From Balanoglossus misakiensis (Eukaryota > Animalia > Hemichordata), in contig CM082589.2 of the NCBI GenBank assembly GCA_040954595.2, forward strand, positions 8,254,232 to 8,318,231: a DNA stretch of 64,000 nt, written 5' to 3'. Within the stretch, counting starts at the first letter, position 1; the number at the start of each line of letters is the position of its first letter. A model generated the notes under the pieces. It was not told where the DNA came from. It did no database searches and saw only the letters and a list, made by a program, of their open reading frames with translations. The position numbers and the translations under genes were made by a program. This document shows, in pieces, positions 3,001 through 61,598 of the stretch.

Positions 3001-4411
3001 TGAAGTTGCAAATCGGTTTATTGGTTGGCCGAAATGTGCCACGGATTCTCCTCTAAATGTAGTTTCTAAAGCAATTTGCCGCAGCGCAACGACGTGAAAG
3101 AGGGGTGAATTACAGTTTGCTGCGCGAGCGACGCGTGGGACATAGGACTATAATGGAGAAGGGAGTGGTAATATTGTTTGTAATTACGTCAAAGCATGCG
3201 GTTTTGCCATGTTGAATCTATCATAATATACTCCGATGGAATTTCTCAATGCGAAAAAATTGTAAATAGGATACTTTGAAAGAAAACGTGGACGTTTTTT
3301 ATGTAGAATGTGGATGCGCTCATCAATATGAAAGTTGCCAACCCATCGTCTACGTTGATCACCTGATTGCACTGTACGTCACCAACTTGGCTATGCAGCA
3401 ATTCCGAAGGCGCTAGGTTCAAATTTCTGGTCGTGAAATCGTTTATCTCGGCGCATTTTTGCAAATTGTACTGTTTAATAGGTGTGATAAAGAGTTATCA
3501 CACGAAGTTTGACCGATATCGTATTGCATTGTGAACACATTCTGACGAGTGCGCAGCAACGAGTCAAAATGTGACCATAGTACCTATATGCGCTACATTT
3601 TATTCCGAAATGTTGTTTTCAAACATGTAAATAGCAGGAAAAACTTTACAGTAAGCGAGTGTTTGTACTCCCGATCGCCATTTTGAAATCCCATAGAACT
3701 TCGACAAAATCCCGAAAATAGCAGCTGGACTACCCAAGATTTTGTTGCTTTGCTAACCCGTTGCTCAGCGAAATTATCGAGATTTTGTCATTTGACAGCC
3801 TTTCGTTCCATCCCGATGATATCGATTCTACGCTTGCTAATATTGCTTATAGGCCTGACATTGAAGGCAGCGACAAAAGCGTCGCCAAAACTTAGTTTAA
3901 GATATATTATAAAGAAATGTACGGGTCGAACCACCTGAAAATGTCATAAATTCAAGGTGTGGGTTTTCTTCTACACTGGCAATCAAATCAACGACGGCAC
4001 CAAAATTGAAATTTTGAGAAAATAGTGTTAATTACCTTGATTTAATACTCGCAATGTAGGAGGCGTTTCAAGAAAGGTCTTAACCTCGTCCGCCAGTTTA
4101 GGTTCATCAATTTCTCGTAATACCTCTTCGAGTAGATCCATATTGGTGTCATGTATGAATGTATTATCATACAAGTACAGGAAAATGTCAGGTGCTGTTT
4201 TCAACTTTGAAGTTTCTTTTTTTGGTATCTGTGCACCACTGAGGAGGTTTTTCATTGACCGAACTTTCTCGTCATTTAGTTTCGAACCCAGTGCATGGAA
4301 GAATCTGTTCAGCGGATTTATTTGACGGGAAGCCTCGCGTGACCTGTCCATTGCTTTCCGTACCGCGTTGGTTTGAGCTACTGATGGTTTGATCAGTGTT
4401 CCAGTAAACAT
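1..4411 (-). CDS. DED-NACHT NLR-like protein, 3' end outside window (exons 4411-4036 and 1071-<1)
   Basis: Exon 1 is a death effector domain (LNRFFHALGSKLNDEKVRSMKNLL..IP..APDIFLYL..NMDLLEEVLREIDEPKLADEV) ending CAAG|gtaatt, phase 1. Acceptor ttgcag|AA at 1071 continues in frame with no stop to base 1: RRIFIEGKPGFGKSTLCKKLAYDW (Walker A), VCFLFDGMYD (Walker B), KLIVTSR (sensor 1), ENP..FPDTLTSLY, LSMKEYVVAKYM (winged helix). Confidence 0.9.
1291..3047 (+). mobile_element. Internally deleted IS3EU-like DNA transposon in the NLR intron
   Basis: Long TIRs (1291-1871 / 2511-3047, AATCCGTGGCAC...GTGCCACGGATT) and a 6-bp TSD CTCCTC (1285-1290, 3048-3053). Frameshifted internal remnant at ~2065-2375 (EIQELVERGRSHREIS..ISERSV..VGPAYGLKTMKGYLASKGIYVGRQRLGESLKR) resembles the N-terminal part of IS3EU-type integrases. 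Confidence 0.75.
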
Positions 4412-11100: not shown

Positions 11101-14100
11101 TACAATATAACTCACTGGAGCCAAACAAATGATTTACTAATCAAAATCTTCTTGAAAAGATATTCATGAAAAGGGATTCAAACAACGACAGAGATTCATT
11201 GTTTTTGATTGACGTTGGAATTACATATTTTTGTAGCTCGGTAAGACAACGATCCCTGACTCACAGTAGCCCTAAACATTGGTGGGTAAAGGTTACCAAA
11301 ACTGACACCACGAGTATTTCAGCTATTCGCGTCTGAGAGAGGCTGCAGGAGATATCCAATACATCCAGTGAAATGTATAATACAAAACTCAATGGGCAAC
11401 CAGTGCACAATCAGAATAGATCGACAAGGAAAGGTCGTATTGACTCCAAGTATGACCGTACCAGCTCTTTTACGAAGTTTATACAATCACATAAGATTAC
11501 ATTTAGATGTATTGACCAATATAATTCAGCAGCAATCGATCAAAGAAAGAAAATGCGTTAAAGACCAATAAATGCGCTTATTTTGAGAATCGTAGCCATC
11601 TTTCAATTCCAATTGTAGATGGCAATGTTTTGACATAAATTATTAATGTGGCCATCCCAACTTAAAACGCTGTCAATTGGAACAAGTACTTAATGACCTC
11701 AAACATTATTAATAAGGGTGTCATTAAATACAACATGAATGGATCAAGATCCCCATCCATTCTCCGGTTAACATAATCGACTATTTTTTGCTGTCAAAAT
11801 TTCTGCTTAATAAAACCAGGGCTTACATCATCACCTTTAGGCCTATAGGTCTTGAAAGCAGGCTGTTTCACCGAACCAATTGAGCAATTCAATATACGTC
11901 AGTGTTTCATTAATTGAGTGTCATAAATCATTGAATAAAGACTGTTAACATGGATGAGGTGACAAGTACGCACTGGTATGGTGTCTGTCTGGGCATGTTT
12001 AATTAACCTTGCAATAGTCAGGTTGCTCAGACAGAAGTGGGTAACAGCGTCTGTTATCTGAAATGTGTTCATGACACTGTGTGAACAATATTAACAAAGA
12101 GAGCCAAATTCCTGACCATAATAAGCTGACAGGGGACTACTGGTATGGTGTGAGCCGCATCACACGTGTCGAAGGCGATAGTGGTGCAGCTCACAACCAC
12201 ACATGAGCGGCAAATATACGGCCCACCAAGATCTGATATGCGGCAATAACTGATTTATCATATGCTCCCACAAGGATTCCACAAGAAAATAAAAAGAAGG
12301 CGAGAACATTTTAACTTTAACGAATTATTTTGTTCCACTTAGCGCATTGATGTTTCATTCACTTTATATAAACTGGCCTCTTTCACAACTCGCGGTGTTG
12401 ATCGATGCATACTATAAAAGTTGTTGCCCAAGGGTGCCCGAGTGGCACTAGGCGGAATTTCAAATGGGAAGTCATAAATGAACATATTTCAGCAAAAATG
12501 ACAGACGGACCATTACACTCGTCTGTCTCGGCAACCTGACTATATTTAGTTTATGCAAGGTTGAACAAGTTCAGACAGACACCATACCATCGCGTACCGG
12601 TCACCTAATCCATAGTCTGGCCCCATACCAGTGTGTTTAAGATATATAGAAATTACTGTGTAGAATTTCTATATATCTAAAACACACAGGTATGCAGCCA
12701 GGCCACCAAATTCGTAGACCTCCGAGGGTTTATGTTTTATCGTTTTAATGATACTCAAATACTGTAACAATGACATGTATTGAATTTATTAATTGGTTCG
12801 GAGAAACAGCCTTTCCGGACCTAAAGGCATAAAGGTGACTATGTACGAAGTGCACTGATGAGATAACCACGTGTTATGAACTGTATCGTTTGTCATGGTC
12901 AGTCTGAGGAATCGGTTTGAAGAAGTACAGAACAATTCAACATAGCACTCACGACGAGTTGAAGGGGTTGATGGATGTATTACACAGTAGAATTGATCAC
13001 GACAGCACCAAATATATTCACTTGACACAAACGATGTTTTCATTTCTCAAAAGAAATCACGCCCCTTCGAAACAATTCAGGAGAATTTGTCTCAATTGTT
13101 TACTAAAATATGAAACATTACATAAATCGCAAGTTGTTTCAATACAAAATAAATCTGAAAAAATACCACTGTATGAAAAATGGAGTTTAAGATAGAAGTA
13201 AACGTAAATGTTACGTAGCGAATACACATCTATCTCGTCATGTACGTAATCGTCTAGCAATGACCTCCAAGGAGACTGCGCTGTGGACGCATGGACATGC
13301 CACACAGCCCGACATAACCAGATCAAACAGATCAAAGCGATCTCCATTACTAGACAACATCATGTGTCTGTGAATAGGCTGAGCTATTCAAACTATACCT
13401 TATGAAATTAGTGACAATTCATTCGAAATGGATACGATTTGCAGTGTGCCAGCAAAGAGGGGAATTTTCACGCGATGGACTTGTAGAAATTATGTTTTAT
13501 CATTCTGTAGAGTCATTTTCATCAGATCTGTGCTCATATTCATAAATTATCATGAAACAGGCTGGGTTTTTTTCTTTAACCAGATATGAACTGGATGTGC
13601 TCACGTGTCCATACATGTTATGTTATTAAAACTGAAAATGTGCAAATCTAACCAATAAGTTATCACCAAATTCAACTTGAACTAACAAGGGTTATCTGTT
13701 TACATTAAGAAACATGTAATTTACACCAGAGCCCTAAATAACCATAAAAAGGTACAGTGAAGTGGCAAGGATTGTATATACATGTATACAATATAACTCA
13801 CTGGAGCCAAACAAATGATTTACTAATCAAAATCTTCTTGAAAAGATATTCATGAAAAGGGATTCAAACAACGACAGAGATTCATTGTTTTTGATTGACG
13901 TTGGAATTACATATTTTTGTAGCTCGGTAAGACAACGATCCCTGACTCACAGTAGCCCTAAACATTGGTGGGTAAAGGTTACCAAAACTGACACCACGAG
14001 TATTTCAGCTATTCGCGTCTGAGAGAGGCTGCAGGAGATATCCAATACATCCAGTGAAATGTATAATACAAAACTCAATGGGCAACCAGTGCACAATCAG

Positions 14101-14427
14101 AATAGATCGATAAGGAAAGGTCGTATTGACTCCAAGTATGACCGTACCAGCTCTTTTACGAAGTTTATACAATCACATAAGATTACATTTAGATGTATTG
14201 ACCAATATAATTCAGCAGCAATCGATCAAAGAAAGAAAATGCGTTAAAGACCAATAAATGCGCTTATTTTGAGAATCGTAGCCATCTTTCAATTCCAATT
14301 GTAGATGGCAATGTTTTGACATAAATTATTAATGTGGCCATCCCAACTTAAAACGCTGTCAATTGGAACAAGTACTTAATGACCTCAAACATTATTAATA
14401 AGGGTGTCATTAAATACAACATGAATG
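5193..14427. repeat. Tandem array, unit ~2680 bp (~3.3 near-identical copies plus a deleted leading copy)
   Basis: The same spurious ORFs recur at 6012/8693/11373/14059 (offsets 2681, 2680, 2686) and at 7557/10237/12917. The leading segment recurs at offset 1595 (5449 vs 7044). Confidence 0.97.
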
Positions 14428-15629
14428 GAAATGCGAGAGGCACCAACCATACAATTTGTTTGGGAACAAGATCTCCATCCATTCTCCGGTCAACATAATC
14501 GACTATTTTTGCTGTCAAAATTACTGCTTAATAAAACCAGTGCTTACATCGTCACATTTAGGCCTATAGGTCTGGAAAGCAGGCTGTACGTTTCTCCGAA
14601 CCAATTAATAAATTCAATACATGTCATTGGAGTGAAGGAGACCTCGTACGACTAAAAGTACTTTAATACACTCGAAATGCACTCAAATTACAATATATTA
14701 GGCCAAAGTAAGTAAATTCTTTGTTTTGCGTCCACTCAAAATTCTAAAAGGTACGAGGGTAAGCGGTCAAAAAACACACACAAAAAAATAACACAAAATT
14801 AGTTTGCCTTTATTTCAGAGTTTTTCTCGTGCAATATGCACATTTATGTAGTAGTGTGACACACTACTACAATATGATCAAAATACAATGTCATTTGTAG
14901 CCTTTAATCTGTCATTTGCTTTTCTTTTACGAGTTTAAGATTTCTTATTTGTGTGCTGAATGTGGCCACTGTCTCTACAAGTTCTGCAGACTGGCTGGAT
15001 AGACTGGTACTGTTCCCTCATATCCGGTGTAATAGGGATGAGATGATTCCTGACCCACAAACATATCAAACATCAGGACTATTCAATCTGGCACTGTAGT
15101 AATGTGGAGAAACTTCCATCTGCCAAGTTTGGTTGATCACGATGAAACATTTCTGTGAAGAAATGTTTTTGAAAATTCTGTAAACAAAATACGAAAACAT
15201 GCTTGAGTATAGTGATAACATCTCACTACGAAGTATGATGCATATGCCAACCCATGAGATGATAATGATAATATGACTGTATTGCAAAAAAACACAAATG
15301 TTCTACATTCACTGAACTTCACAGTCCCACCACCTATTTTTACTGATCTACCACCATAGAATTTTCTTTTGCTTACCCCCCCCCCCTTTAAATGCTCCCT
15401 TTCTCTAGTACCATTTCACTGACAGAACGATTTGTAATGCTCACCATCATCTGGTGGACCTAGATCTAAAAATCACAAATGAAATGAATTTTAAATATCA
15501 AATATTTGAAAATAAAATGTGACAAATATAACTGTTTCACACTTTATGAATATATTTAAAAACTGTCCAGGAAAACATCTAACAAAATCAAAAAAACATG
15601 TGACTGGATTTAAAAGACAGAAATCAAAC

Positions 15630-21599: not shown

Positions 21600-21996
21600 C
21601 GTGAAATTCAGTGACAACATCATGGGAATCGTATTCAAAAGACCCAAGATCCTTATTTTCCCAGACATCATTATCAAAATGATACCATTCTTCTGGAAGA
21701 CGCCGCTGGAATATTTGAAAATGTTAGACAACTAAATGTAAATGTATCTTTACAATGGTGTCGAAAACATCATAAACACGTACATATCCAACACATCCAT
21801 CATAGTTTCCAAACATTATACGCATTTTTGTTATGAAAGGCCATGTTTTGGTTAGGGTTGGGGAGGTTTTTTTTACGTCGAACAAGAAAAATAAGCCTCC
21901 CGACTTTGCAACGAGGCAAATAAAATTAATATGCTGCATGATTAATGCTTGAAAACCACGATGAGATGTGTTTCTGACAGCTGAGTTCATACATAC

Positions 21997-22336
21997 CTGA
22001 CAGCACTTCGTATGTACATGTACTTAGGTTTTCCGAAATATCAATTTTTCGTTTTTTCGACCTTGTTCTATTCTGGTATGCTTCAATTTCTGCGCACATT
22101 GGTTTCTTATTTAACAACTCGAATGCATCTTTTAGTAATATAAGTGTTTCATCATCTCCTTCCTGTTGTTGCAGATATCTGAATACGGCAAGACCCATAT
22201 CAAGAGAATCGAAGTCCCTCAGTTGTATCCGTTCCTTTAAAATTTCTTTCAGTCTTTGAAATTCGCTCGAAAGCAGGTTGCCGTCAAGAAGTGCAAATAG
22301 GTTTGTTAAATCAGAAATGCCTGTAGACTTACTCAT
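21997..22336 (-). CDS. Death-effector-domain exon (second DED gene, downstream exons uncertain)
   Basis: ATG at 22336: MSKSTGISDLTNLFALLDGNLLSSEFQRLKEILKERIQLRDFDSLDMGLAVFRYLQQQ..TLILLKDAFELLNKKPMCAEIEAYQ. This has the DED helix pattern and aligns with the NLR exon 1. It is followed by basic RSKKRK and a donor TCAG|gtatgt (phase 1). Confidence 0.72.
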
Positions 22337-22909
22337 ATTCCTTTGATTTCCACATAGTATATAGTAAGACGAAGATCCCTGTAGTAATAATGATATTTTG
22401 TCTGCCCGACGATAATCCTTCAAACTTATGCTGGTAAATTACACAAGGTTATAAGCAACTTGAACACAGGCTGTTGTTAATATCGGGAAATTTGATTTAT
22501 TAATAAACAATCCGCAGTAGACGATTGTGTGTGGAAATCGGTTGTGGGAACTACAATAGCCTGATCGAAACCAAACGAAACTTACGTCATTAACATACGC
22601 ACCAAGCGCGACCAATTATGGACAAACAATTCTTGAAATTCAAATCGTGTGTTATCTCACCAACAATCCTAATGGGAGATAGTATCGGGTGGTATTTTAG
22701 CAAACATTTGTTGCGACGGTAACATAGAATTGTTTGTACTTTAAGACAATGACACAATGTACTATTGGAAGAAACCCTTTTGAAAACGCCCCGCTAAGTA
22801 CCTTCAGCGGAGGACATTTGGCCGTTGCTAGAAAAATACCTGAAGTCGGTTAAAACGTATAGCTTAAGTACCCAGCATGCTATGCATTAATGATGAAGAG
22901 GCATATGAC

Positions 22910-31166: not shown

Positions 31167-33203
31167 TTTTATATCCCTGCACCAGAATAGACCTGTACTG
31201 GTCATTTTGCTCTGTTTGTGGGAGATACAAAAACACGACACAACCAGAATTGGCGAAAAATGGCCAAGAGATATTGACCCTTTATTGCAAAGTTAACAAT
31301 GTGTAAAGATGATGAAAAATTCCTCGCCAGTTGCCTGCCTCAATAAAACAGCAAAAACCTCAACAAGGTAGGTATAGGTCAAAGGTCAACTGGCGAGGAA
31401 AATTAACATAACACTAAACACTGTAAAATAGGTACATAAAGAATCTCCCACAAAGGTGTGGGCCTAAAAACGCCTCTAACAAGTACAATCCAATGCGACA
31501 ATGAGATAAGTAAAGATACAAAGTCCATGTAAGCTCTAAAATACATATACCTCCGTCCCATACGACCTAGGTAGGGGAGGTAGATGGGGAGGCGGTGGGA
31601 GTGAAAATTCGAGGAGATGAACCAGCTCGTTGTCTTGAAGTCACGGCTGTAAAATGGAAAAGGCTGTTCCTAGTATTGACTCCCCCCCTATAGGAAACTG
31701 CAAATATTGTCAAGGCGGGAAAATGAAGTTGCTCTTCCATGAAGTGTCTCCCCCCGGAGACTAAAGTGCTGTAAACCTCCCTGTCGGATAATAGAAAACT
31801 GTAAAACTTGATCACTAAGAAGCATGTCTATAAATGCGATTATAATAGTGATTATAATCGTGCTTTTATATCCCTGCACCAGAATAGACCTGTACTGGTC
31901 ATTTTGCTCTGTTTGTGGGAGATACAAAAACACGACACAACCAGAATTGGCGAAAAATGGCCAAGAGATATTGACCCTTTATTGCAAAGTTAACAATGTG
32001 TAAAGATGATGAAAAATTCCTCGCCAGTTGCCTGCCTCAATAAAACAGCAAAAACCTCAACAAGGTAGGTATAGGTTAAAGGTCAACTGGCGAGGAAAAT
32101 TAACATAACACTAAACACTGTAAAATAGGTACATAAAGAATCTCCCACAAAGGTGTGGGCCTAAAAACGCCATAAGCCACACCCTGGTGTGGCCGCCCCA
32201 CCCAAAATGACCAGACCACCCCAGGGAAGGACCCTAAAAACACCATCCCCTGCTCTTGATAGCCATAAGCCTAAAAATTGGTTACCAAGATGCTGGTTGC
32301 CTAATGTACCCCTTAAAAGCATCTGACCTCCACCTGCCTAAGGCACGTATCTGTGCATCAGACAAACCGTCTTTAGCAGCTTGAGAGGCTGCTCCTATCC
32401 TAAAGCTATGTCCCTTGAACCTGTCTACCTCAAAGCCGCAAAAAGTGAGCAAACGCCTAAGCTGTGCCGTGAAATCTCCCCGTCCTATGCCTAACGGCCC
32501 TGGCATGCAGAAAAGAGGGCCAGGCTCACTCCCCCTCAAACGATACCTTCACTTGTATCATGTTGCACTCGTACAATGAAAAGTCTAGATGTAATAACCA
32601 AGTCTCAAAATTTGAGAGAAGAAAGTGCGTAATGTAATGTAAAATGAAAATAAACCACGTAGATGAAAACCTTGGAACAAGGTAAAATCGGACGCCGTAA
32701 TATATCAATGTGGGGCTTGTAAAGCTATACCATAAAATGTAATTACAACTCGGGATGCAAAACTGTGAAACGGCGTTAAATGAAAGCTACTATGAAATAT
32801 TGAATAACATATATACCGACAACTACTTCGTAAAAAAGAAAATAGCCTTAGCATTTACCGCCAATGCTATATGCAATTCTCTACAAAAACCTTATGCATG
32901 GTAGGAAATTGGCACTTGCCTGAAAAATCGAAGAAAAAATGAAAATTCGAGGAGATGAACCAGCTCGTTGTCTTGAAGTCACGGCTGTAAAATGGAAAAG
33001 GCTGTTCCTAGTATTGACTCCCCCCCTATAGGAAACTGCAAATATTGTCAAGGCGGGAAAATGAAGTTGCTCTTCCATGAAGTGTCTCCCCCCGGAGACT
33101 AAAGTGCTGTAAACCTCCCTGTCGGATAATAGAAAACTGTAAAACTTGATCACTAAGAAGCATGTCTATAAATGCGATTATAATAGTGATTATAATCGTG
33201 CTT
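31167..33203 (-). mobile_element. Ngaro/PAT-type tyrosine-recombinase retrotransposon, internally deleted, with split direct repeats
   Basis: Repeat A at 32940-33203 = 31602-31865. Repeat B at 31864-32171 = 31167-31474. Order on the minus strand is A1-(YR)-B1-A2-B2. Confidence 0.85.
32282..32525 (-). pseudogene. Tyrosine recombinase C-terminal fragment
   Basis: FKGHSFRIGAASQAAKDGLSDAQIRALGRWRSDAFKGYIR contains the HxxR, W and catalytic Y motifs of DIRS/Ngaro recombinases. The N-terminal part is missing. Confidence 0.9.
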
Positions 33204-36001: not shown

Positions 36002-37765
36002 TCACACCTCGCTCTCTCGAACTTCCTCGTTTTGTGAAGACGACGTGCTGCCCCTATTGCATTCCGTGTTACCGCCTCCGTTGAGGTGTCTGGCCTCCAA
36101 CGGTTGCCTCTCGGGGTCGCGATTTTCCTGCTGCGTTGTGGGGGCGTGGAATAGTGACTCCTGAACTCCTATTATAACAAATTAATACGTCACAGTCACA
36201 TAATAATAAATGCAATTTGTAACGTGTGCACAATAGTTTTACGGAGTGATAAACAACCATTTATCTTCGATACTGTTTGCATTGCTGCAGTGGTGACAGA
36301 TGACAGCTTTTATACGGCCGCGGCCTATGTAAGTCATAAGTACGCATATAAATAATAGTTTTATGAAATGTGCATAGTATACCGGAAAAGGCTATTAGCA
36401 TCAGCCAGTTAACTCACCGCCCATTGGAACGTCGTCATGGTAACGTCTACCATATCCAGTGGCGTTTCGACGTTTCCGCACGATGTGGCAGACAGTGGCA
36501 CCTACTCCCGCTAAAACGAAACCTATTGGCAACCAAATCCAATCGTACACTGGGATGGCAGATTTCTGTTCGTCGACAATTGGCTTCTCTGGCTTCACAT
36601 TTATGTCTGGAAAAAAAAAACAATAAATTTATTGTTATCATTTTAGACGCATAATGTGACGGCGCTTACAGAGTTAAATAGAATATTTTTTTATCTGTGT
36701 ACCGTCGACGATGATCGCATGATATACACAGCCTGTGAATCGGGAGGCGATGCCATATCTACAAAATCTGGCTGTGGAGGCGCTGTCGTCCATTTATACT
36801 TGCCTATGCATTTCGGTAATTAAAAGACCACGCGGGGCCTGCCATGATTAATGCGTACACGCCCTCCCTGCGCGATTCAGGGTCACAGTAAAACCACGGG
36901 TTGACCATGTGGACATCACAATCGAAGTGTAGCAGTTTGTTTCAATCACTGTGGTTGGATACGTCCTTTGTGTTTCTTTGTTTATACCAGTTTATACACT
37001 GTATGAGCAAGGGGGCCTGACATGATTAATGCGTGTCACACACGAGTGGCATAGAGCTATTTCAATAGTTACGAGCCATGTGTAGGATAAGCTTGATAAT
37101 ACTCTACCAAACTATGTAAACCACGGTTGATCATGTGGACAACACACTATCCCGTAGTGGACAGTTAATTATGACTGGTTGACATTTTTTGCGATATGAG
37201 AACAATTACAGCTCCTACCTTATCTCAGTACCATAGATATCATCGCCGAAAATTTTCCAACCGCTGGCATGGCAGAGCTATTTCAAAAGTTATGAGCGAT
37301 GTGTAGGATAAGCTTAATTAATACTCTACCAATTTATGCAATTCACGGTTTGATCATGTGGACAACACACTATCACGTAGTGGACAGTTTATTATGACTG
37401 GTTGACATTTTTTGCGATATGAGAACAATTACAGATCCTGCCTTTTGTCAGTACCAAAGACATCATCGCCGAAAATATTCCAGTTTTCTCGTGAGCATCG
37501 CACACGAGCGCAACTAAATGCATTTTGCTAGAAGCGAATCGCTAGCTGTACCTCTTGGATATCCTAAAAGGACGAAGTTTGGCTTACCTTGATGACATAT
37601 TTTGCAATTTTCCTCGCCAGGTAGATCATCGCACAATGTACACGAAAGACAATTACCGTAGATAGAGTCACAAAACTCATCAGCTGCACAGTAGTCACAT
37701 TCTAATTTAGAGGCCAGCGCCACTCGAATTACCGCCGCCGACACTGTCATCCAAAAAATCAACAT
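36002..37765 (-). CDS. Single-CRD TNFR-like receptor B (exons 37765-37588, 36606-36418, 36168-36002)
   Basis: Signal peptide, then CDYCAADEFCDSIYGNCLSCTLCDDLPGEENCKIC. TM WIWLPIGFVLAGVGATVCHIV followed by RKRR. Tail GVQESLFHAPTTQQENRDPERQPLEA..EEVRESEV*. Confidence 0.85.
37048..37481. repeat. ~224-bp tandem duplication in intron 1 of receptor B
   Basis: agagctatttcaa..tgtgtaggataagctt..catcgccgaaa occurs twice. Confidence 0.85.
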
Positions 37766-40672: not shown

Positions 40673-41906
40673 TTACATACTTGCATCTAACGGTTGTCTT
40701 TCGGGGAGTGGTTCCTGGGTCTCGCGGACTGCTTTCTGGAGGTCTGTCATCTCAGTTCCTGGATGGAAGACGAGAAATTCGTTGTCATAAAATCCCACCT
40801 ATCGCTACAATATCTCTCAGATGTGCTTAGGAAAAGAAAAGGGCTACCCTACTAGGCAGTCTCTAATATGTGGACATGTGTCTGTTTTTTTCCTTATGTA
40901 ATCAATTGACCATTGCAACAGTCCTTGTTACGAGATTCATGGAAAATTCTAAGAAATACTTGTGAACTTACCACCGCCATTAGCAGTTCGTTTCCTTGAA
41001 GGTTTTAGAAGGCGATCTCTGTGTCTCCTGAAACAAAACCCTGATGTTGCTCCGATCCCTGCAAGACCAGAGCCACTCAACATCGATATCCACAACGACT
41101 TAAACGAAGGAGGCTTAGTTTTCTCTTGAGTTATGTCGTTGACATCAGTTGTATCATTTAAGCTCCCAATCTTCTCCAGCCCTTGTTCTCCTGTCAAACA
41201 ACGGGTTAATTAGTTGGTGTAAACCTAAATGAAAGCAGCAAAATCATGTACACTTCTGATGGGCAACTGGGGAGCTTATTTGTCTCAAATTTGAAAGCCA
41301 ACTTAAAAATGACCCCAAAAATATCTCCAAGGAGAAAATTTCAAGTAGAGAATGTTTTGAAAACCAGACAGTAGATATACCCTGTTTCTTTTTTGTTTTC
41401 AGTAAGAATACACACACAAACTATAATATTACAAAGAATTGAAAGGTATCTTGGTGTATACTACCATAATAGTAAGCCAATACGCGAGTTGCAAAGAATT
41501 ACGTATAAAATATTTTTCGCCACGATCGTATGCACAGTATCGCTTGCGTGCATTTGTTTTTAAGGAATGGTATACATGTAATCTGTATGTAGAATTGGCC
41601 AAATTGTTGCAAGATGTAAGAGAAATATCGTTCTTACGTGTATTATATGTACACACCGGCATGCGATGCAATTGACCAGCGCGCGTGTTGAAAGAATGTT
41701 CTCATACCTGAGCACATTTTGCAGTTTACCTCGCCGGGTAGGCCGTCGCACGCGCTGCACGGTAGACATGAACCATGGACAGAATCACAAAATTGGCCGG
41801 GTCCACAGTCGCGGTGTTGACATATGTCAGTCGATGATGCCAAAGCCAAAGCTACTACTAACGCAAGAAGCGTTGCACTAACACCGAAGCACAGCACTCT
41901 CATCAT
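40673..41906 (-). CDS. Single-CRD TNFR-like receptor C (exons 41906-41708, 41190-40972, 40758-40673)
   Basis: Signal MMRVLCFGVSATLLALVVALALA, then CQHRDCGPGQFCDSVHGSCLPCSACDGLPGEVNCKMC. Weakly hydrophobic TM LWISMLSGSGLAGIGATSGFCF followed by RRHR. Tail ..RETQEPLPERQPLDA(SM*). A further 3' exon through GCAA|gtatgt is possible. Confidence 0.8.
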
Positions 41907-43919: not shown

Positions 43920-45170
43920 CGTTGGTGGATTAAAATAATAGCGGGGAATATACTTCATCCTCTGGTTTTTCGAAAAAAATACAGAATAAAACAAAATGAC
44001 ATTCGTTTTCAACTTAATTTTTGTTACATATCAAACATACTCTTTTATTGACATCATTTTTCAAATTTCTGTCTCTTTCAATACACAAATAATGGGAAGA
44101 ACATCTTAAGCGTGCTAAAATAGAAATGTGTACATTGATTTTTACAACATAGAGATATTTTTCTGGTGTAAGTGAACATAACAGGAAAGTTTATCAAGGG
44201 TAGAAATTTCGCCATACCAATTATTATATAAATAGCTCTTAAAATTACTTACAAAAATCTTGTGATATCGATTTTTTGGCATTTTTAAAAGTTTGCACCA
44301 ATATTTGACACATTTTGACAAATGAATTGGAAATCTTCCACATTCACCTAAAACAGCAACATTTGGCGTGTTACTCGATACACCCAAAAAACACTTACAT
44401 GCTAGATATTGAATTCTCTCAATATAATCATAATTTGTGTATCCCCATACTTCTGAACCATAGGTAAGTATTGGTAAAACCATTGCATCAAAAATCTTGA
44501 AAAAAGTGTCTTTGGAAAAATAACCAGTCTTTTTGCTCACTCTAAAAATACCCATGAGAACCTTTCTTGCTTGTTGTGCAAGAGTTTTTGTGGCCATTGA
44601 CCATTTCAATCTACAGGAAAACAGAATACCTAAATATTTATAATAGGAAACAACATTTACCCTCTCTCCGTTAAAATACTATTTTTCTGTTTTTGCAAAA
44701 TAACCACCAGATTTAAATACAACCACTTTTGTCTTTTGTAAGTTGACTGTCATCTTCCATTTTATACAATAACAATGCAACAAAGTCGCTGTAGACCAAT
44801 TACAGAGTCAGAAAAATGTACAACATCATCTGCGAACAGCAGACATAAAATTTCTGTCAAATATGGCGAAAGTTGTATACCACGCTGACCACTGTTCTGT
44901 ATATCATGTGTCAGTTCATTTATAAAAAAAGAAAATAAGAAAGGACTGAGCATACATCCCTGTCTAACCCCGACAGGACAGTTGAAATATTCCGTACATT
45001 TACCATTGTTTCTTACACAAGATTTAACGTCTTTATACATGGAATTCAAAATTTTAAAAAGTTTGCCATTTACACCGCCTTTCAAGAGAATAAACCAAAG
45101 CCTCTGTCGCTCGACAGTGTCAAATGCTTTCGCAAAATCAACAAAAGCGCAGTAAAATTTGCCACTAATT
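43920..45170 (-). mobile_element. Decayed non-LTR retrotransposon RT (CR1/L2/RTEX group)
   Basis: FYCAFVDFAKAFDTV, GVRQGCMLSPFLFSFFINEL, LLFADD, YKYLG and FDAMVLPILTYGSEVWG, with frameshifts and deletions. Confidence 0.92.
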
Positions 45171-45272
45171 TTTGAATAACTACCGCGTGATGTCGTTACT
45201 GAAACAAAACAAACTGCAACGTACTAATTTAACATTATCAAAATTATGAAAATTATAAAATTAGCGAGCATG

Positions 45273-46826
<1,554 letters not shown>

Positions 46827-48608: not shown

Positions 48609-49973
48609 TTAAACCGCGGTCACTTGACTCAAATTGTCTGTGTCTTCTGCATTTGCTGGTTGTGTGACGATCGCAGGTCCTGTTCCATTTTGACCTGGAC
48701 GATGAAAGAAAAAAAATCAGGCGCTAATAATGTGTCTAACATGTGTAAACGACTAACTTCAAACAAACTACAACGCAACCATGTCTTCCGTTATGTTGTA
48801 GATGTTGTCAAACAGATGGAACAAAATTTCGTGAAAAATAACGAAATGTTGACTATGACGTTTTATGTGCTGGAATGTTCACATTCATACCTTCGAGTGG
48901 ATTCAGCCTGCCATTTATACCGTTCATATTGACATTACAATGTGGTCCTCTTCTCTCTGTCATTGAAGAAAAAGTGCGTGTTAAGAAGTCTATGTTTCGG
49001 TATCCATGTTTTTCAAATGAAGAAAGGAGAAAGTGTCAAGCAAAAGACTCATTTTCATTACCCTTGCTCAAAAACAACTGCATGGAAATGAACTAAAAGG
49101 TAATTTCACACTGCGAATAAATGGATTGTTGATGCATGGGTGGGTTGGTCGGTGGGTGTGTGGGTGGGCGGTTTGGTGTGTGATGTTTGGTTAGGTAATC
49201 GCGATGAATTATATAGGTCAACTAACATTTTCACCTTTTAGGATCTGTTCCAGTTGTTCATGACCCTTGATTATACCGTCCATCTTCTTGCTATGCCTCC
49301 ACTGAACGCACAAAATAGTAGTGCAAAGTACCGCCACGAGAACCGAGCAGCCAATTGCCGCCGACACGACATTCCAAAATGGAATATCAGGGAACTCTAT
49401 AGAATTAAAGCAAACGTGTCATCTTAGACCACATGTAATTTTTACAACAACACATAAATATGAAAATGTTGGTCAATTTCGTGAGACTAAAAAAAACTGA
49501 AAAACTTAATCTTTGTGAGAAAAAAAATAAAAGATGAAAAATGACTCACTGGTGATAAGTTTCTGATATGTTCCAGGCGTCGTTGAAGTGACGTCATCTT
49601 CTGAGTTCTCATGAATAATTATCTGATTTGGCGTTGAAGTGACGTCATCTTCTGAGTTCTCATGAATAATTATCTGATTAGGAGTAGTCGCCAGATTCGC
49701 CCTTGGGGTCACTGGTAGTGTTGGGTTGCTGGGAGGCCTTGCAGTCACCATGGCCTCGTCAGGTACATGATGTGCAAAGTCATTATCAGGACCATTCATG
49801 TAGCACTGGTAACGCCCTTCCTGAGCAATTCCTACGCCATGGTCAATGCACGTTCCCTCATCACAGGATGACAAACATGCTTCCATTGATGGAAAGTACT
49901 CGGACGACACTCCGGGTATCGCTCCAAGGATTAGTATCACGCCCACTACAACAATCTTTAGCTTTGACGTCAT
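48609..49973 (-). CDS. Receptor E: half-CRD, long stalk and TM (exons 49973-49550, 49396-49235, 48956-48891, 48694-48609)
   Basis: Signal peptide, CLSSCDEGTCIDHGVGIAQEGRYQC, P/T-rich stalk, TM FWNVVSAAIGCSVLVAVLCTTILCV, tail ending DNLSQVTAV*. All introns are GT-AG and phase 1. Confidence 0.85.
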
Positions 49974-52316
49974 ATCAGCTGTCGATACAGAACGGGAATT
50001 GCCAGTTTAGCCAATTGATGTACATGTACTAAGTCACTGGGCTATATCACGCTGAAGTAAGCGAGTAAAGGTGGTAGATGTCTGGTGTACATGTCTGCTT
50101 TTTTTTAAATTAGAAACTTGTAATTGATCAACCAATAAGCCATGATGGAGGCCGGGGCCTTTATCATGCGATGAAGTTGTTGGTGGCGATCAGAATGTAC
50201 ATTTTGCAAGGTATTTGAAGAAAAGTCCCAGGGCTATGATACAAATATATGACACCAATAAGTTTTGTTTCCGATCAACCTTAAATTTTAATTTTTGAGC
50301 GGATTGTAGAAACCAGCCGAGAAATGCGGAATGCCTCAACACGAATATAAACTGAAATTCCCAGAGTTGTTATAAGTTATTCCATTTATAAAACATAATT
50401 CGGAGGGAAAAAAGAATAAAACTTACCCATTAAGTATTTCTGTGCAAGATAATTGCCTCCAGAGCTTGAAATGGGTGGTCCCGGCGCGGCAAAGCCCAAC
50501 ACGTGTTAATCTAACTCCCTAGGTTAATGCATATGGATCTTCTAAGTAAAAATTTGTGTAGTAAAAAGTAAACTCAAGAAGCCGAAATTTTGAATTCAAC
50601 AATTGTAAAAGATACGAAAAACGTTTACAGTTTTGTGTGATTAAAGTTAAGTCTATTATACGACTTACGAGTGTACAATTTTGGAACTATTAATTAATTT
50701 ATTAGTATTTGCCGCGCCTAGGGAAACCATTACCAAAATTACGTCGAGGACGATTTCATTTTTAACAATCAGGGGGTTTCCCAGTGGTCTCTCATGGCAG
50801 TATAGAATTAGTGGTCTGTCATGGCAGGAAATTAGCATAAACAGGATATCCCAATTAAGAACATGATCACGTGATATTGAGCCACTTTCTTTTTTTAAAA
50901 ATCTACGTTAAAATCACGCTTTAATAAACGGCCAGTTGTAACCCACTAAACATACAGCACAGTACAGAAGAGAAAATCAACAAAGCACATCGAACAATAA
51001 AAGCCGGGATAAAATACCGCTAATGCAGAAGGAATGGCTTCCGTACTTATATTATTTATGAGCTACTGTCATAGAGATAGCTGTCTGTCTGTCTGTCTTC
51101 GGTTGGGTGGGTGGGTTGGTGCTAGCGGTATCTCAAGAATGCCTTGCCAGATTATTTTCATAAGTTCTTCATCGGATCTCAATAATCTTGCAGATGCAGA
51201 TCAGCTGATATTGACAAACGTTTCAAAAATCAAAGCAGGCAGAACTCGTAGTCAAAGCGTGTATGTGTGTTTGGTTTAAGCTTTGGGGGACTTTTCATAT
51301 AATCACTGTGACATCACCTACTGCATGTGTGTTACCAGTACCGTCTAATAAATTTAAATCTATTCTGTCCAGCAAAGTTTATAAAAATGCACCCTGTATT
51401 CAACAAAATATTCGTACTCTGCTCATTCATTCATAAAAATGCTTCATTTATTGCTTGTGTAGTATGAACCATTAAAACTCCCCAATGACATATTTTCAGG
51501 ACAAAAAAATCAATCATCCAACCTTTTTAATTATGTTCTATATTAAAGTACATGTGAGGAATCTTTTTCAAAACAAAGAAGAAAACTTGGCGTTCAAAGA
51601 GCATCCCCATTAAAAGAAAAAAAGGTGTGGCTCTTAAATTATCGAATGTTTGACAGCGACAAAAAAATCCTTTCTTGTAGTTCGAAAATTTGCATTCTAT
51701 GACGTCATTGAAAACTTTAAATAATACAGTATACTGTTTTCATTGCAACTGTTTAACTTTTACATTAATGTCCGGTCATCACATGGTTGTGGCATTGTAT
51801 GGAACTCACCGCTGTTTGACTATTGTTATAGTAACAGATGTCCGTTTGTCTGTCTGTTGGCATGCTCGTTAAGTCGTAAAAGCCAATAATATTACTCCAA
51901 TAAACTTATAATAACCCTTTTCAACAACCATTTAACAACTCATCAACAACTCTTAGCCATGTCAACATCCAGGGCTAAACTTTCAGCGCGTGGTAACTAT
52001 CACGCTGCTGTCATGGACCTGAATTCCCCACCATGTCAAACAATTAAACATTTATTTGGGAGTAGATTTAGGTTGTGAAAATGCCATAATGTCTCACAAC
52101 CAACAGTCAACGGAAGTAAAACCTCCGTGAAAACGTGCCCTATCTTGTGGAATGAATGAATGCGTCCAGTTTTCCGTTAAAATCAATTTATTGCATTGAC
52201 TCAAACTGCATGATATTTTACCGGAAAACGCTCTCTTAAAACCCAAGATGTCTAAAATTAAAAATGAAAAGACACACACAATAAAACATAGGTCAAGATT
52301 ACATAATCCACACAAA

Positions 52317-54294
52317 TTAAGATTTCAAAACTTGGGTTTGAATGTCTCTTCCTTCGTCTGTTGGAGTAGAGTGTGAAACCGGGCGCCTAGTTCCTGCACT
52401 GTTCAGAACCATGTCCGTCTCGCTGTTGTTACGAGGTATCTGCTGTCCACGCGAGTAACCATTGATTTGTCCGTCTGTGAATCGAAATATATGAATAAAC
52501 ATATTTCAATTTGATAGAAACTGTCAGCTCGTATAGAATGCAATTAAACGCCCAACTGCATGGATATGGATGATCAGGTTGATATTCACAAATCAGCGTT
52601 TAGGTAGAGCTTCGACTTACTTGTCTTCGGTTGTTCGTTTGACACATGATTGACAGTTGAAATGTTGACCACACTCTGGGGATCTCCTTCTGTGCTGTTT
52701 AGTTCTGGAAAAGAAAAAGTAAAACTCAACAAGTTTTCCTTTCAACCACTGCAAACGGCTAAATGAGTTGATATTAGGAGATCCGTTTAATATACCACAG
52801 TTGCGATTGTACTTTAAGAATGCTGTATAGAAAACAGACACTTTCAGGAATTATATTTTTGTGCCAATTATGATCGAAGTCTTGACCTACTAAAAGTATA
52901 CTAGTATATTTTAAACATGTCATTAAAGGATGAAGATTTGACCTTAAAGGGACAAAGTCTCTCTCGCTGCCCTTTTCCATTTATTATGTTTGATACAAAA
53001 CACCGTTTATGTTAATGTGCATGTGGATATATAGTGAATCAATGTTCGACCACACACAACTTCCATCCCACTGGTAGACATGAGTGTGAAAAAAATCACC
53101 AAAATGAATAAATGGTAAACACCGATTATTCATTTTGGCGAATTTTTCACTCTCGTGTCTTCAAGTTGGATGGAAGGTTATGTGTAGTTTAATGTCGATT
53201 CACTATATATCCACATGCACATTAATATAAATGGTGTCTTTTATCAAAAACATAATTAATGGAAAAGGGGCAGTGAGAGAGAGACTTTGTCCCTTTAACA
53301 AATAGAAAAATAATGCCATCGTTTCTGAGAATTCTTTCCAGTGCCAAATTTACCTGTGACGTTTGTATAATTTCTGTACTTCATTCTGCGTTTAATTGTG
53401 TCCTTCGCGAATAAAATACAGATGACACACAGCACAAAAAATGAGACCACTGTCATTGATGTCATCACAATGTCTCCAGCCAGAGTTACTCCAAGAAAAC
53501 CTAGCACGAGAAATAAACAGACCAAAATTACTGCTCATTGGCATTTAACAGCTAATAATAGATTATTTTCTGTTGATTGTGAGAATTCGCGAGACTTGGT
53601 TAATTACCGTAGCAACGGATTTCTAGCCAAGTAGTTATAAAAGTCAAGCTTTGTATAAAAGTAGAAAAGCTTGTGCCGATTAACTCGATGGACCATGTGT
53701 TCTTTGTCCTGTGTATCACAAGAAATACAAATGTATATGCCTGAAATTTAAAACATGAGGGACTTCCGTTCGGCAATGTGCCACTCTGCATTCATGTTCT
53801 TGCTTCACAATATAATCGATCAAAAATCTAAAAACGTGCTGCCTACCACTGAGGCGTTTTTCTTCACTTCTGTACCTTAGGAAATCTACATGTATAGAGA
53901 AATATATATTTAGCGTTATGACAATCAAAACTATATTTAGCATTATGATAATAATGAACTATATTAAGCATTTAATAATACTGAACTATATTAAGCATTA
54001 TGATAATACTGAACTATATTTAGCATTATGATAATAATAAACATGGTAATATGAATGATAATTGAACTTACGTGAGCAATGATCAGTGCATCCTAAGGAT
54101 GGTCTTTCATTGGGATCAGCATCCTTTAGTGGACAGATGTCATCACACGGTTTACATTCATATCTGTCGTCTGCTGAGATACCTTCTCCGTGATCGATAC
54201 AGTATTGATCCATTGTGTAACAGTCAAGTTGACATTGACCTTTGACGAGGCCAAAGGTCATAATAAGGAACAAGGCTCCGGAGAAGATGTTCAT
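52317..54294 (-). CDS. Grindelwald-like single-CRD receptor F (exons 54294-54072, 53885-53847, 53500-53354, 52704-52621, 52474-52317)
   Basis: Signal peptide, CQLDCYTMDQYCIDHGEGISADDRYECKPCDDICP..GCTDHC|SHFLRY, TM exon GFLGVTLAGDIVMTSMTVVSFFVLCVICILFA, tail ..SETDMVLNSA..RRPVSHST..TQVLKS*. Confidence 0.85.
52948..53294. mobile_element. Kolobok-like palindromic MITE in intron 3 of F
   Basis: TTAA|AGGGACAAAGTC...GACTTTGTCCCT|TTAA. Nearly the whole element is an inverted repeat. Confidence 0.85.
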
Positions 54295-54828
54295 ATTTAT
54301 ACCTCTGAGAATTTGGGCGCAGAGAATGTTGAGAAATATTGGTTAATCGGTTGATTAATATTTACTGCACAGTGTCAAAATGGACAGAAATCGTGTAAGG
54401 GAAATACATACTTATGTTTAACTGCAGTTTTAACACCACCCTATTGTTTTAATAAACATTATTACTGAAACTTTTCTCCCAATCTGATCAAAATCAGATG
54501 TAGGGAACGGCGATGTGGTTTTTTATGCTGTCGCACTAGTGTAGGCGCGACAGCATTAAAAACACGTCGCCGTTCCCTACAACTGATTTTAATCAGATTT
54601 TTTTTCTCCATAGAGTTGACGCAGAGATTGGCGGCCAATGTGAAATTCAAATTTAATGATGAGTGATGTCATACACACAAATGTGAGGTAACTCAAGGGT
54701 CATGGAAGTGGCCTATTGACATTTTACCACACAGAAATGGCGGATACTCAAATTTGAATCATATGTAAATATTGGTCTGTTGTGGCAGGCAAGAGAGTCA
54801 TGTATAATGTTTTACGAACGTTCCATTG

Positions 54829-55580
54829 ATGCTATTTTTGGCCCGTTCGCGAGACGCAACAGACAGCACGTATATACGCAAATTTGGCATAAATGAGTGA
54901 ACGTGGTCTGAGATGGCAGGTGCACACAGGTACGCCCTTATCACATGGCACGGATGTGTGAATCTGTGACTGGACTTACCTGGTCTGTTCTCCAACGATA
55001 ATAAATTTTGTACTGACCGCTATAATGGCAAGAAACAAATAAAATCAATCAAATGTGTTCAATTATTCTTGAACTCGATAATATACTTGTCCCAGTCGGG
55101 TGCTTCCCGAACTGCAGTAGAGGGGTTCCCCTAAAATAACGTCATCGAATAGTCTAAATTGGGGGAGTTTACAGGAGGTTGCAAACTTCCGGTGTGACCT
55201 CCATGCTGGAAGGATTCTCCCCATGACCGAACCAATTTTCCCTAATTTTAGAGTGATGATGTGTTTTCTCCATTGAATTAGAGTGACCACGCGGTAGAAA
55301 CATTCATCCCTTATACTACAAGTGGATATATTTTAGGTATCCTTGGTGTAATTTAGTTATTATTACCAAATATTCTCTCAACAAAGTCTTTGTTAATTCT
55401 GATCAATTAGGACCAGTCCCATCGATGCTATTTTATGGCCTGTTCGTGAGATGCAACACGTGCGCAAATTTTGAATAAATTATTTAACGTGGTCTGAGAT
55501 GGCAGGCACAAAGAGCTACGCCCTATCACATGACACTGATGAGTGAATCTGTGACTGGACTTACCTGGTCTGTCCTCCAA
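54829..55580 (-). repeat. Direct duplication (54829-54995 / 55425-55580), each copy carrying a minus-strand splice donor
   Basis: aatctgtgactggacttacctggtctgt occurs twice. It reads ACCAG|gtaagt on the minus strand at 54980 and 55565. Confidence 0.75.
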
Positions 55581-56944: not shown

Positions 56945-58722
56945 TTAACATTTTAATACTTCAGTGGGTCCTATATTTCCTTCTGCAGAGTCGGTGGCAT
57001 GTAGGACTGGGTGGCGGTTGTTGTCCATATCACTGGCACTGTTCAATAACATCTCTGTTTCTGAATGGCACCTTCTCAAGGGAGGATCCGACAGCTTTGG
57101 CTTGGGCGAAGCTGAAAGGAAATTTGAAATACGCTCTTAGTAATTGCAAATGGGAACGTTTTGTTCCAACAAAGCAAGTGCGGTATTTGCTTATTTTTAT
57201 TCCGATCTCCAACTAGTAAATTTTCTCTCTTCTTTTTTAAAAGAAAAGAGGTGTGGCGCTTAAATTATCGAATGTTTGACAGCGACAAAAAACCCTTTCT
57301 TGTAGTTCGAAAATTAACCGTTGCGATTTGCATTCTATGACGTCATTAAAAACTTTAAATAATACAGTATACTGTTAACATTGCACTGTTTAAGTTTTAC
57401 ATTAATGGCCGGTCATCACGTGGTTGGATAATTGTGTGGCATTGTATGAAACTCACCGCTGTTTGACTGGTTGACTGTCACGTGGGTGATAGTACTCGGT
57501 GGAGCCAGAGCAGCATGCACATCTTGTGGTGATTCAACATCACTTGAACCTGCAGTTAACAGAATAATTATTATTGCAAATTAGAGTGTATTCTCTTGAT
57601 GTAGCTTTTTTTAGTTTGGCAAATATAGACTATGGATCTCAGTCAAGTCACTCGTGAAAATTTGCACTAGAGTTCAATCCAAAGTAAAAAAATATGTGCT
57701 GTTCCGATTACCCGACTTACCCTATATTTAACCTTACTCTAAACTTTTCAGAGTTTCGTAAATCCGGAAGTAAAAATAAAGATGCCAAATATACAAAAAT
57801 TATGAAAATTGCGCGAATCACTCGAGAACTATGACGTCATTCTTCTACACTACGGCGGCCAGAGAAATAAAAAAAAAATCGCAAAATAATCGGAACAGCA
57901 CGTATTATTTTATTTGGCCTCAGCGTGTCCCTTACCAGAAATATCAGTCCCACTGCCTTGTTGGTCGCGTCTAATTCTGGTTTCTCGTTTCTTTTTCCGT
58001 TGTAGGTTGATGAACATCGCCACCACGACAATGACAAGAACTGCAATAACAGCTAACACAATGATATCCACGGCAAGGGACGAACCAAGAAAACCTGTAC
58101 CTGAAATATTATATATGAACTGAAGTTTCACTCATGGATAACAAAAGGGCATTTTTGTGACTGTTTAGTGTACGAAGTCAGAAAGACTCAAATGCAGACC
58201 AAACTATTGTTGTCAGAAAAAAATATAAAATCCTATCGTTATGCTCACCTTGTTTTGAGCCTAGAAATGATTGATGGAGGAAATCTACAGGCAGAAAAAT
58301 AACATCAGTTAGATTGTGTAGAGATGGAGGGAGGGAGGGAGAGGGGGAGGGAGAGAGAGGGGGAGAGAGAGAGGGGGAGAGAGAGACAGCCAACAGACTA
58401 AACAGGCGACCAAATCGTGCCAATAATTGTAATGAAACATTTTTCTATGCAATGACAAACTGCCGATTAAATTCTCATTTTGAGTAATCAATTTGTGGTC
58501 ATCGAATTTTCTTTCTGAATAAATAAGAAAAAAATTACCTTTGCATTGTTCTATGCAAGTCAAAGACACCTGTGATGTAGAAGTACCCTCGTCGGGCCTA
58601 GGGCAAATATCCCTGCAGGGCATACATTGGTACCTTTCAGACGGGTCGAGGCCTTCCCCATGATCCACACAGTAAAATCTGGCATCTCTGTAGCAGGATA
58701 CTTGACATCCATAGGCGGTCAT
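56945..58722 (-). CDS. Grindelwald-like single-CRD receptor G, no signal peptide (exons 58722-58539, 58284-58249, 58100-57936, 57549-57457, 57111-56945)
   Basis: MTAYGCQVSCYRDARFYCVDHGEGLDPSERYQCMPCRDICP..TCIEQC|KDFLHQ, TM GFLGSSLAVDIIVLAVIAVLVIVVVAMFI followed by RKKKR, tail ..SETEMLLNSA..RHPVLHAT..TEVLKC*. Exon-for-exon paralogue of F. Confidence 0.85.
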
Positions 58723-59590
58723 CTTGTTTCCTCAGGTGTCGATCGTGTACTGGAAAGTTTGAATCTGTCGAACAAACACAGGATTATATAGCACCACGCC
58801 GAAAATGTTCTTGTGTGTCCGCGCAGTCGGTCTAGACAATCTGCTGGTCAAACTGCCACGTAAGTGAAAATCAGTAAGTTGTCGGACTCCGACACAAGTG
58901 GAATACTTTTTTCTGCGAGAAATAACTGGTCCTTATACGAATGTTGCACACTTAGGATAAAGAACAGTGACCTATTACAACACCTGCCATATTAGACCAC
59001 TTTGCTTTTCGAGCCGATGACCTACCACACAGGGCCACTCAGGACAGAAATCGTACTAATGACATCATGAATAAATTCAACCGTAGAAAATCCGAATATA
59101 ATATTCATTTCATAGTTTATAATCTTTCAACTGGCGATACGATCGATCCCAGCATGCGTAACATGGATGTTGACAACAAATTTACTGTTCAAATAATTAT
59201 CTCAATGAGACTCTATCAAAATCAAACAGGCATTAAACCACGCTAAGTGACGCATTCCTCCACTGGAATGCGAGCACCAATTTACGGTACACCCAATACA
59301 TTAGACGAGCCCACGAGTCGTTTAAATTGCTTCTGTAAACCGCAAGCGACACGCACACCTATACTCGCAATTTGAAACCCAATCAGGCCTACTTACATGC
59401 GTGCAGATTATGCGCTGGCGAGTGAAATACGCGTGTGGTAACTCCTACTTTTATACAAACATGGTATTTATGTGATTGGCTGCCTGTAAAGTCATCATGT
59501 GACCAAGAGTGGCAAATCAGAAACCATTTATTGTGCAATATATGTACATGTGATAAGAAGCAGAGGGGTCTGGGTAACCGAGACTATGGA

Positions 59591-60751: not shown

Positions 60752-61545
60752 TTTTTATTTCAGGCAATACTGCCCATATCAAAAAACACACAATCTACAC
60801 AAAGTTACAGAGAATAAATAAAAAAAAAAGGAACAACAATACAGAAAAAGGGTTTTAAAACTGTAAAAAAAAACTCAACTATACATTACAAATCTAAAAT
60901 GTTTCCAAAAAGATAAAAACAACAAAAAATCCGAATCTAAAAACAACGAATTAAAAAGTTCTCACTATCAAACAGGCGTGCCCTGAATTTAAAAAGAAGT
61001 GAGGAAAAATTCAAGATGTTCCTCTGTACACAGGTGTTACTGATACTACATGCAGATTTAAGTTTAAAAATTATTCTCATCGAGTTATTATAAGCAATCC
61101 ACGTACTGTTCATCTGCTTCACAATGTACTCACTCCAGATGTTAAGGCAAAAAACACTGTACATAAAAGTTTTAAAAAGAACATTTTTGACTTCATAAGA
61201 ACAATGGCAGAAGTTGCGGATGATATAATTGGCTCTGGCATACATACACTTTAACTGTCTCTGAATGTCATTGTTGTCATCTCCAGAAGACGACACTATG
61301 TAGCCCAAATACTTTTTTATCTTTACAAACTTGAGCAACTCTCCATAGAGATACACTTTCGGGTTGTTGTCTAATTTCCAGGACTTCGGCAGAAAGTACA
61401 TACATTCAGATTTACCAGAATGGAAAAGGATGTCATGGTCATTTCCATACATTTCGCACCACGTTATCAATTTTCTGAGTGATTTAGCAGAAGGACAAAT
61501 CAAAACAATATCATCTGCATAGAACAAATGATTGATTATAATTAC
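60685..61545 (-). mobile_element. 5'-truncated RTEX-like LINE with (ATT)n tail
   Basis: HLFYADDIVLICPSAKSLRKLI, KYLG and YARANYIIRNF. The 3' end atgggc..tgcctgaaataaa runs into the (TAA)n tract at 60685-60750. Confidence 0.88.
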
Positions 61546-61598
61546 TATCTATTCGTTACGTAAGTGAATTCACATGTGTTCGTGCGTACATTGAGCGT

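Follow-up and report, generated by a model that had tools for sequence, protein, structure and literature searches.

How a cell-surface receptor could be made without a signal peptide is the question raised by gene G of the hemichordate Balanoglossus misakiensis, which lies in the 64,000-nucleotide stretch of DNA analysed here (the window). G belongs to an array of seven genes (A-G) located on the minus strand between 29 and 59 kb of the window, each encoding a single-pass protein with a cysteine-rich N-terminal part (gene A was modelled from two exons only). The reading that we favour, and consider probable, is that G is a TNF-receptor-like surface protein that is oriented N-out by its transmembrane (TM) helix alone, as type III proteins are, and that has lost the signal peptide of its relatives (membrane-protein types are used as they are defined in PMC9496750).

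G encodes 214 amino acids in five coding exons, all of its introns being GT-AG and in phase 1, and its reading frame is unbroken throughout, with eight of eight cysteines retained. Coding exon 1 (58539..58722; all G features are on the minus strand) carries the ATG, with A at -3, and a domain with the cysteine spacing C-x3-C-x7-C-x14-C-x2-C-x3-C-x15-C-x3-C. It is followed by a 36-nt stalk exon with AG/GT ends in phase 1 (exon 2, 58249..58284), which has a 39-nt counterpart in F and can be aligned with the acorn worm protein P0001 discussed below, and by exon 3 (57936..58100), encoding the TM helix (residues ~86-104, ~58065-58009) and the basic cluster RKKKR (57999-57985). Exons 4 (57457..57549) and 5 (56945..57111, with the stop TAA at 56947-56945) are predicted to be cytoplasmic and specify most of a low-complexity tail of about 109 residues, in which no domain is expected. 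A SETxMxLNSA motif in exon 5 is common to F and the orthologues of F; since the protein ends in VLKC, a C-terminal PDZ motif was ruled out. Paralogue F (52317..54294, minus strand) has the same layout of five coding exons, with signal peptide and eight-cysteine domain in one exon, and shares all eight cysteines with G, the identity being 42% in the domain exon and 38% across domain and TM helix. The spliced model of F is collinear with the Ptychodera flava protein XP_070570934.1 through the last residue, which validates the exon calls.

The surroundings of these genes contain several other features. About 230 nt from the exon-4 donor and intron 4 of G are found a second time in the interval separating F from E (51610-51821 versus 57237-57468, 85% identical); on this likeness they are left over from a partial duplication or from a lost G-like copy. 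Reverse-transcriptase remnants and a tyrosine-recombinase-like fragment are found between the receptor genes (60937-61548, 44142-45223, 32282-32548), and a tandem repeat with a unit of ~2.68 kb (~3.5 copies, 98% identical) occupies 5193-14629. Exons encoding a NACHT domain (PF05729, E 1.7e-14) and a DED (PF01335, E 6.6e-13), at 2-1060 and 4031-4411 on the minus strand, probably belong to one DED-NACHT NLR gene that extends past the window start, and a second, weak DED-like ORF (E 0.0015) lies just downstream of the receptor array (21929-22438, minus strand).

The start of G proved to be as the preliminary description had stated. The protein begins MTAYGC, with the ATG at 58722-58720 and the first cysteine as residue 6; an in-frame TGA is found four codons ahead of the ATG (58732..58734); and upstream of this stop there is a good acceptor, ttcgacAG, with its AG at 58765..58766. 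When scored with a matrix derived from gene models in the window itself (19 internal acceptors, four of which belong to G), this acceptor reached 9.3, a value equalled by 0.8% of the 3211 minus-strand AGs, and its AG-free zone of 43 nt falls within the training range (16-111). The stretch from the acceptor to the ATG (58723..58764), predicted to be the 5' UTR part of exon 1, occupies the position of the signal-peptide codons in F; it reads in frame as 14 polar codons, the TGA among them, and contains neither an ATG nor an in-frame hydrophobic stretch. The geometry of stop and acceptor thus bears out, at the level of DNA, that no leader can be read through from the strong acceptor.

This arrangement would be bypassed if G were an ordinary type I receptor, with a signal-peptide exon lying unseen upstream and spliced to a weak AG before the ATG, and missed in the P. 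flava gene model as well. There are indeed two AGs in the interval from the TGA to Cys6, of which one (GAG at 58732-58731) would yield a phase-1 junction, the usual phase of the family and that of every G intron, and the residues MTAYG ahead of Cys6 end in A-x-G, resembling a cleavage site. However, both AGs have scores lower than those of all 19 training acceptors (leave-one-out minimum 0.2), namely -8.6 for the AG with G at -3 (exon start 58730) and -4.2 for the one with A at -3 (58722), and they stand 34-42 nt behind an acceptor of the top 1%. Because the matrix is small and the presumed first-exon acceptors of F score only -2.4 and -1.2 with it (7.9 for D; E was left out), a low score does not exclude the use of a splice site. 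A further argument against the type I explanation comes from D, E and F, which, like other relatives of G, carry the leader inside the domain-coding stretch, so that the family lacks a stand-alone leader exon that could take over. All things considered, we regard this explanation as unlikely.

The window covers just 5.3 kb upstream of G, up to its end at 64000, which leaves the type I explanation some room. In this interval there are 72 ATG stubs of at least 10 residues, of which two combine hydrophobicity with a terminal phase-0 donor (at 63269 and 61134). Since 26 such signal-like stubs occur in 128 kb (the window, both strands), about 1.1 would be expected in 5.3 kb, and the two observed correspond to the chance rate. 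The better of the two, ending at 61134, was rejected as a leader of G, given that it reads a reverse-transcriptase remnant in another frame and lies upstream of the candidate TATA and CCAAT boxes described below, while a phase-1 stub with its end at 62731 is a borderline case (best hydrophobic 8-mer 2.05). Also rejected were a stub at 59108 that recalls the start of F, read as a leader severed by an insertion, because the DNA likeness is not significant (28%, 4.8% and 33% of ~2,540 tiles score equally high against the starts of F, E and D, respectively), and the derivation of the G Met from Met12 of F after a deletion, which no significant alignment backs.

A candidate CCAAT box (59475..59479), a candidate TATA box, TATAAAAG (59448..59455), and a GTAAGT donor at the end of a predicted exon at 59397..59425 (score 7.1-7.6, in a scoring with one of 20 donors left out) suggest, over the interval 59479-59397, that G has a short non-coding first exon. 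The candidate TATA box is one of seven TATA-like sites on the minus strand between 44000 and 64000, of which only two have a CCAAT upstream, the other one being inside a coding exon of F. The 71-nt leader predicted from this arrangement contains no ATG, and a TATATAA near 58790 would permit an intron-internal start that leaves the protein unchanged. As to other upstream regions, a segment upstream of F is duplicated (54820-54995 and 55416-55580, 81%), with a GACCAG/GTAAGT donor in each copy, giving two candidate first exons, and the upstream regions of four genes (A, E, F and G) contain NF-kB-like GGGRNWYYCC sites (30544, 50782, 55131, 55722 and 60230); the window holds 11 matches to this pattern as a raw count, several being both strands of one site.

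To compare leaders across the family, we judged them by hydropathy, taking the best hydrophobic 8-mer before the domain. G reaches only 0.56 and P0001 1.50, as compared with 2.20-3.65 for the remaining nine of 11 proteins, and hydrophobic leaders are present in all neighbours A-F. With a stop before its ATG and an 8-mer of 0.56, G has no cleavable signal peptide at the genome level.

Homologues were obtained only from a full HMMER scan of 1.84 billion representative sequences with a G/F profile, which gave four matches; word-indexed searches of longer proteins, with the G exon and with an alignment of D-G as queries, were negative. True homologues were found only in the acorn worms P. flava and Glandiceps talaboti, with three representatives (P0001, P0002 and P0004, E-values 3e-14, 1e-11 and 2e-4), all four records from these species being annotated as 'uncharacterized protein'. 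The fourth match, P0003 (E 1.5e-5), owes its place to a short YCIDHG word; being a repeat protein unrelated to the family, it was excluded from all counts, and a metagenome match (L001), inside a bacterial histidine-kinase-like ORF, was dismissed as chance. P0001 (XP_070570946.1, a P. flava RefSeq model) has a cysteine spacing identical to that of G, 44% identity to G in the core, 15 residues before Cys1 and no hydrophobic leader, whereas XP_070570934.1 and XP_070571006.1 from P. flava and XP_077993164.1 from G. talaboti have hydrophobic leaders and keep the eight cysteines; P0002 carries the cysteine spacing of F. P0001 is a predicted model of 145 aa. It ends just past the TM exon in what resembles read-through into an intron, which means that the 5' end of the model may be imperfect too. 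The leaderless N-termini of G (5 residues) and P0001 (15 residues) have no sequence in common. A further search among 1436 candidates of 33-384 aa yielded P0001, P0002 and P0004 as the sole homologues and hence no leader-bearing isoform of P0001.

In a six-sequence tree computed with the leaders removed, G and P0001 formed a branch with support of 91/90 (88/87 in another run), and together with Glandiceps P0004 they stood opposite the F group (98/98). F had been described as the closest paralogue of G with a normal leader: it has the leader (8-mer 2.59 versus 0.56 in G) and is the nearest relative in the window, but it is not the sister of G, since grouping G with F was rejected (AU p=0.0003), whereas grouping G with P0004 was not (p=0.078). 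In an 11-sequence tree with full tails, G and P0001 were not joined (6% of 200 bootstrap trees); their grouping was not rejected (AU p=0.29), and the forks and the root were left open. The idea of a switch from type I to type III between adjacent paralogues is borne out in part: the states of F and G do differ, but the F/G split predates the separation of this species from P. flava. Because a leader-bearing Glandiceps relative falls on the G side of the tree, the loss was likely later, on G's own branch, and from these sequences it likely took place once, before this species and P. flava parted.

Alternatively, G could be undergoing decay, could be a rare allele carrying a deletion, or could have a leader concealed by an assembly error; to this explanation we give little credence. 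It would suit a fast-evolving tandem array containing mobile-element remnants, and an out-of-frame hydrophobic stretch (8-mer 2.89) does occur ~65-100 nt before Cys6. However, this stretch has no Met and overlaps the pyrimidine tract of the acceptor, and three of the 19 internal acceptors score equally high; in addition, the ORF, the splice sites and the cysteines of G are all intact. The likely orthologue in P. flava is also leaderless, which strengthens the leaderless state first proposed for G, and with leaders present in the F orthologues and in Glandiceps the loss is probably a conserved one, as opposed to a mistake in the assembly or a degenerating allele. We conclude that the leaderless state of G is likely to be real and conserved.

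Regarding topology, positively charged flanks of TM helices stay cytosolic (the positive-inside rule), and the net charge of G is 0 ahead of the TM helix and +6 after it, which predicts that the C-terminus is inside. The TM helix of G had been claimed to be more hydrophobic, and indeed its single 19-mer (residues 86-104) has a KD19 of 3.66, the highest of 11 proteins; P0001 has 3.31, and the leader-bearing A, P0005 and D have 3.29, 3.22 and 3.16. The TM helices of B and C (36418-36606 and 40972-41190, minus strand) are unusually weak and Gly/Ala-rich, with KD19 of 1.84 and 1.13. The strong RKKKR, put forward as suiting a reverse signal-anchor, does not set G apart: the 15 residues that follow the TM helix include eight K/R, a number equalled in C and P0004, both bearing signal peptides, and the cluster is therefore not a special adaptation. 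The N-terminal domain of G comprises 85 residues, with no N-glycan site in the ectodomain, and fits the range of the human type III TNFRs, for which N-domains of 54, 82, 138 and 164 residues are listed (PMC8249459, Supplementary Data 1a). Type III insertion has been placed on an SRP-EMC-Sec61 route in the same paper, where the TM helix of BCMA is described as very hydrophobic. From charge and hydrophobicity, G would thus be predicted to have a type III topology.

A leaderless G could also be something other than a type III surface protein, inserted with the N-terminus inside (type II) or residing in inner membranes, with its cysteine domain in another role. The topology of G is a prediction, the combination of TM helix and basic cluster is not unique to G, and Pfam and fold searches gave no TNFR match for it. 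Nevertheless, the charges on the N- and C-terminal sides of the TM helix (0 and +6, respectively) point to C-in, eight of eight cysteines occupy positions used by the leader-bearing relatives, and the length of the N-domain lies inside the human type III range, so that we view this possibility as rather improbable.

The label 'TNFR' itself is plausible for G, but it finds no backing in a Pfam match, a fold match or profile-detectable homology to A-C. Pfam, including PF00020 or related CRD profiles, gave no family for the G, F, E and D exons, while C, A and B matched PF00020 below the cut-off (E 1e-4, 1e-3 and 0.045); profile comparisons with A-C gave a probability of 0.4%, and sequence searches of the PDB gave nothing significant. 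The AF2 models (pLDDT 60-62, low confidence) show strands at 16-20 and 31-35 followed by two helices, and Foldseek and VIA fold searches with these models gave no match. The A-C profile reached BCMA at E 1.5-1.8 only, and a CDS(V/I/L)(H/Y)G hairpin in A-C faintly recalls BCMA (E 1.5). In ESM feature comparisons the P0001 domain was nearest to TACI (0.88) and BCMA (0.85 and 0.83), values below 0.9 that serve as a lead only, with ten of its ten best named matches in one family group; the G exon itself had no usable match in the Atlas. A TRAF-motif pattern search of six tails, which atypical sites would escape, found none in G and one (TQQE) in B. On the minus strand, at 46562-46826 and 49550-49973, D and E retain only the first four cysteines (the hairpin module), after which come stalks rich in Pro and Thr; the E stalk contains a perfect internal repeat of ~17 residues. 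On present evidence G looks like a single-domain TNFR, and it may belong to the superfamily, as suggested by an eight-cysteine layout of the Grindelwald/TACI kind, the sub-threshold ESM match and the weak Pfam matches of its neighbours.

Under the favoured type III reading, a short non-coding exon would be spliced to 58764, and translation would start at the first AUG, at 58722. SRP would bind the helix as residues ~86-104 emerge, the +6 flank would keep the C-terminus cytosolic, and the 85-residue N-domain, reduced and unfolded, would be moved into the ER lumen by a BCMA-type EMC/Sec61 route. Four disulphides may then build a beta-hairpin module and a helix-loop-helix module, as in Grindelwald, and G may finally bind a TNF-family trimer and signal via the tail motif common to F, which is the weakest step of this scheme. 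Should G be type III, it would form a natural pair with F, the two having the same exons but only F a leader; swaps of leader and TM helix within this pair would test which changes a type I receptor needs in order to drop its signal peptide, and TNFR-like proteins would have made the type I/III switch more than once, although no new pathway is revealed by the finding.

The closest parallels in design are BCMA (TNFRSF17), TACI (TNFRSF13B) and BAFF-R (TNFRSF13C), described as type III in PMC5360319, which, like the predicted G, combine the lack of a signal peptide with an N-out orientation, a small cysteine-rich ectodomain and one TM helix. The human proteins have no sequence or fold match with G, and as the relatives of G carry leaders, its origin is likely separate from theirs. 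The BAFF/APRIL receptor group is characterized by an Asp-x-Leu hairpin tip and a domain of 4-6 cysteines (PMC8024323), in contrast to G, with DHGEG in a 14-residue loop and eight cysteines. We consider it very improbable that G and the vertebrate BCMA, TACI and BAFF-R all go back to one and the same single-domain receptor, already leaderless in the deuterostome ancestor, in which case a BAFF-type type III receptor would predate B cells: the root left open by the 11-sequence tree and the feature matches of P0001 to TACI and BCMA are compatible with such an ancestor, but it would require regained leaders or a misplaced Glandiceps relative.

Grindelwald of Drosophila, which has a leader, offers a second comparison. 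Like G, it has one eight-cysteine domain and no death domain; in the published description (X2+C2, PMC8024323) a four-Cys hairpin is followed by a C-x3-C...C-x3-C helix-loop-helix, an order to which the end of the G domain and its low-confidence AF2 secondary structure correspond. Grindelwald is reported as pancrustacean only in PMC11377715. The border of its hairpin module coincides with the four-Cys border in D and E; the loop of the second module is x15 in G versus x11 in Grindelwald, and there is no structural match. Saccoglossus TNFRs are included in the trees of PMC11377715, where the term 'signal peptide' is absent from the accessible text. Type III TNFRs are known from vertebrates; a literature search, covering mostly open-access sources, found neither an invertebrate type III TNFR nor a description of the G family, though bioRxiv supplements may list hemichordate receptors.

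TROY and EDAR, by comparison, have leaders. XEDAR (EDA2R), which groups with them (bioRxiv 10.1101/2021.12.26.474206; PMC2772990), is given as a type III TNFR with an N-domain spanning residues 1-138 (PMC8249459). Unlike G, XEDAR is a vertebrate protein with a multi-CRD ectodomain. A type III receptor among the leader-bearing TROY and EDAR provides a precedent for a type I/III difference between TNFR paralogues, and G is likely a convergent invertebrate case of a design already known in human type III TNFRs.
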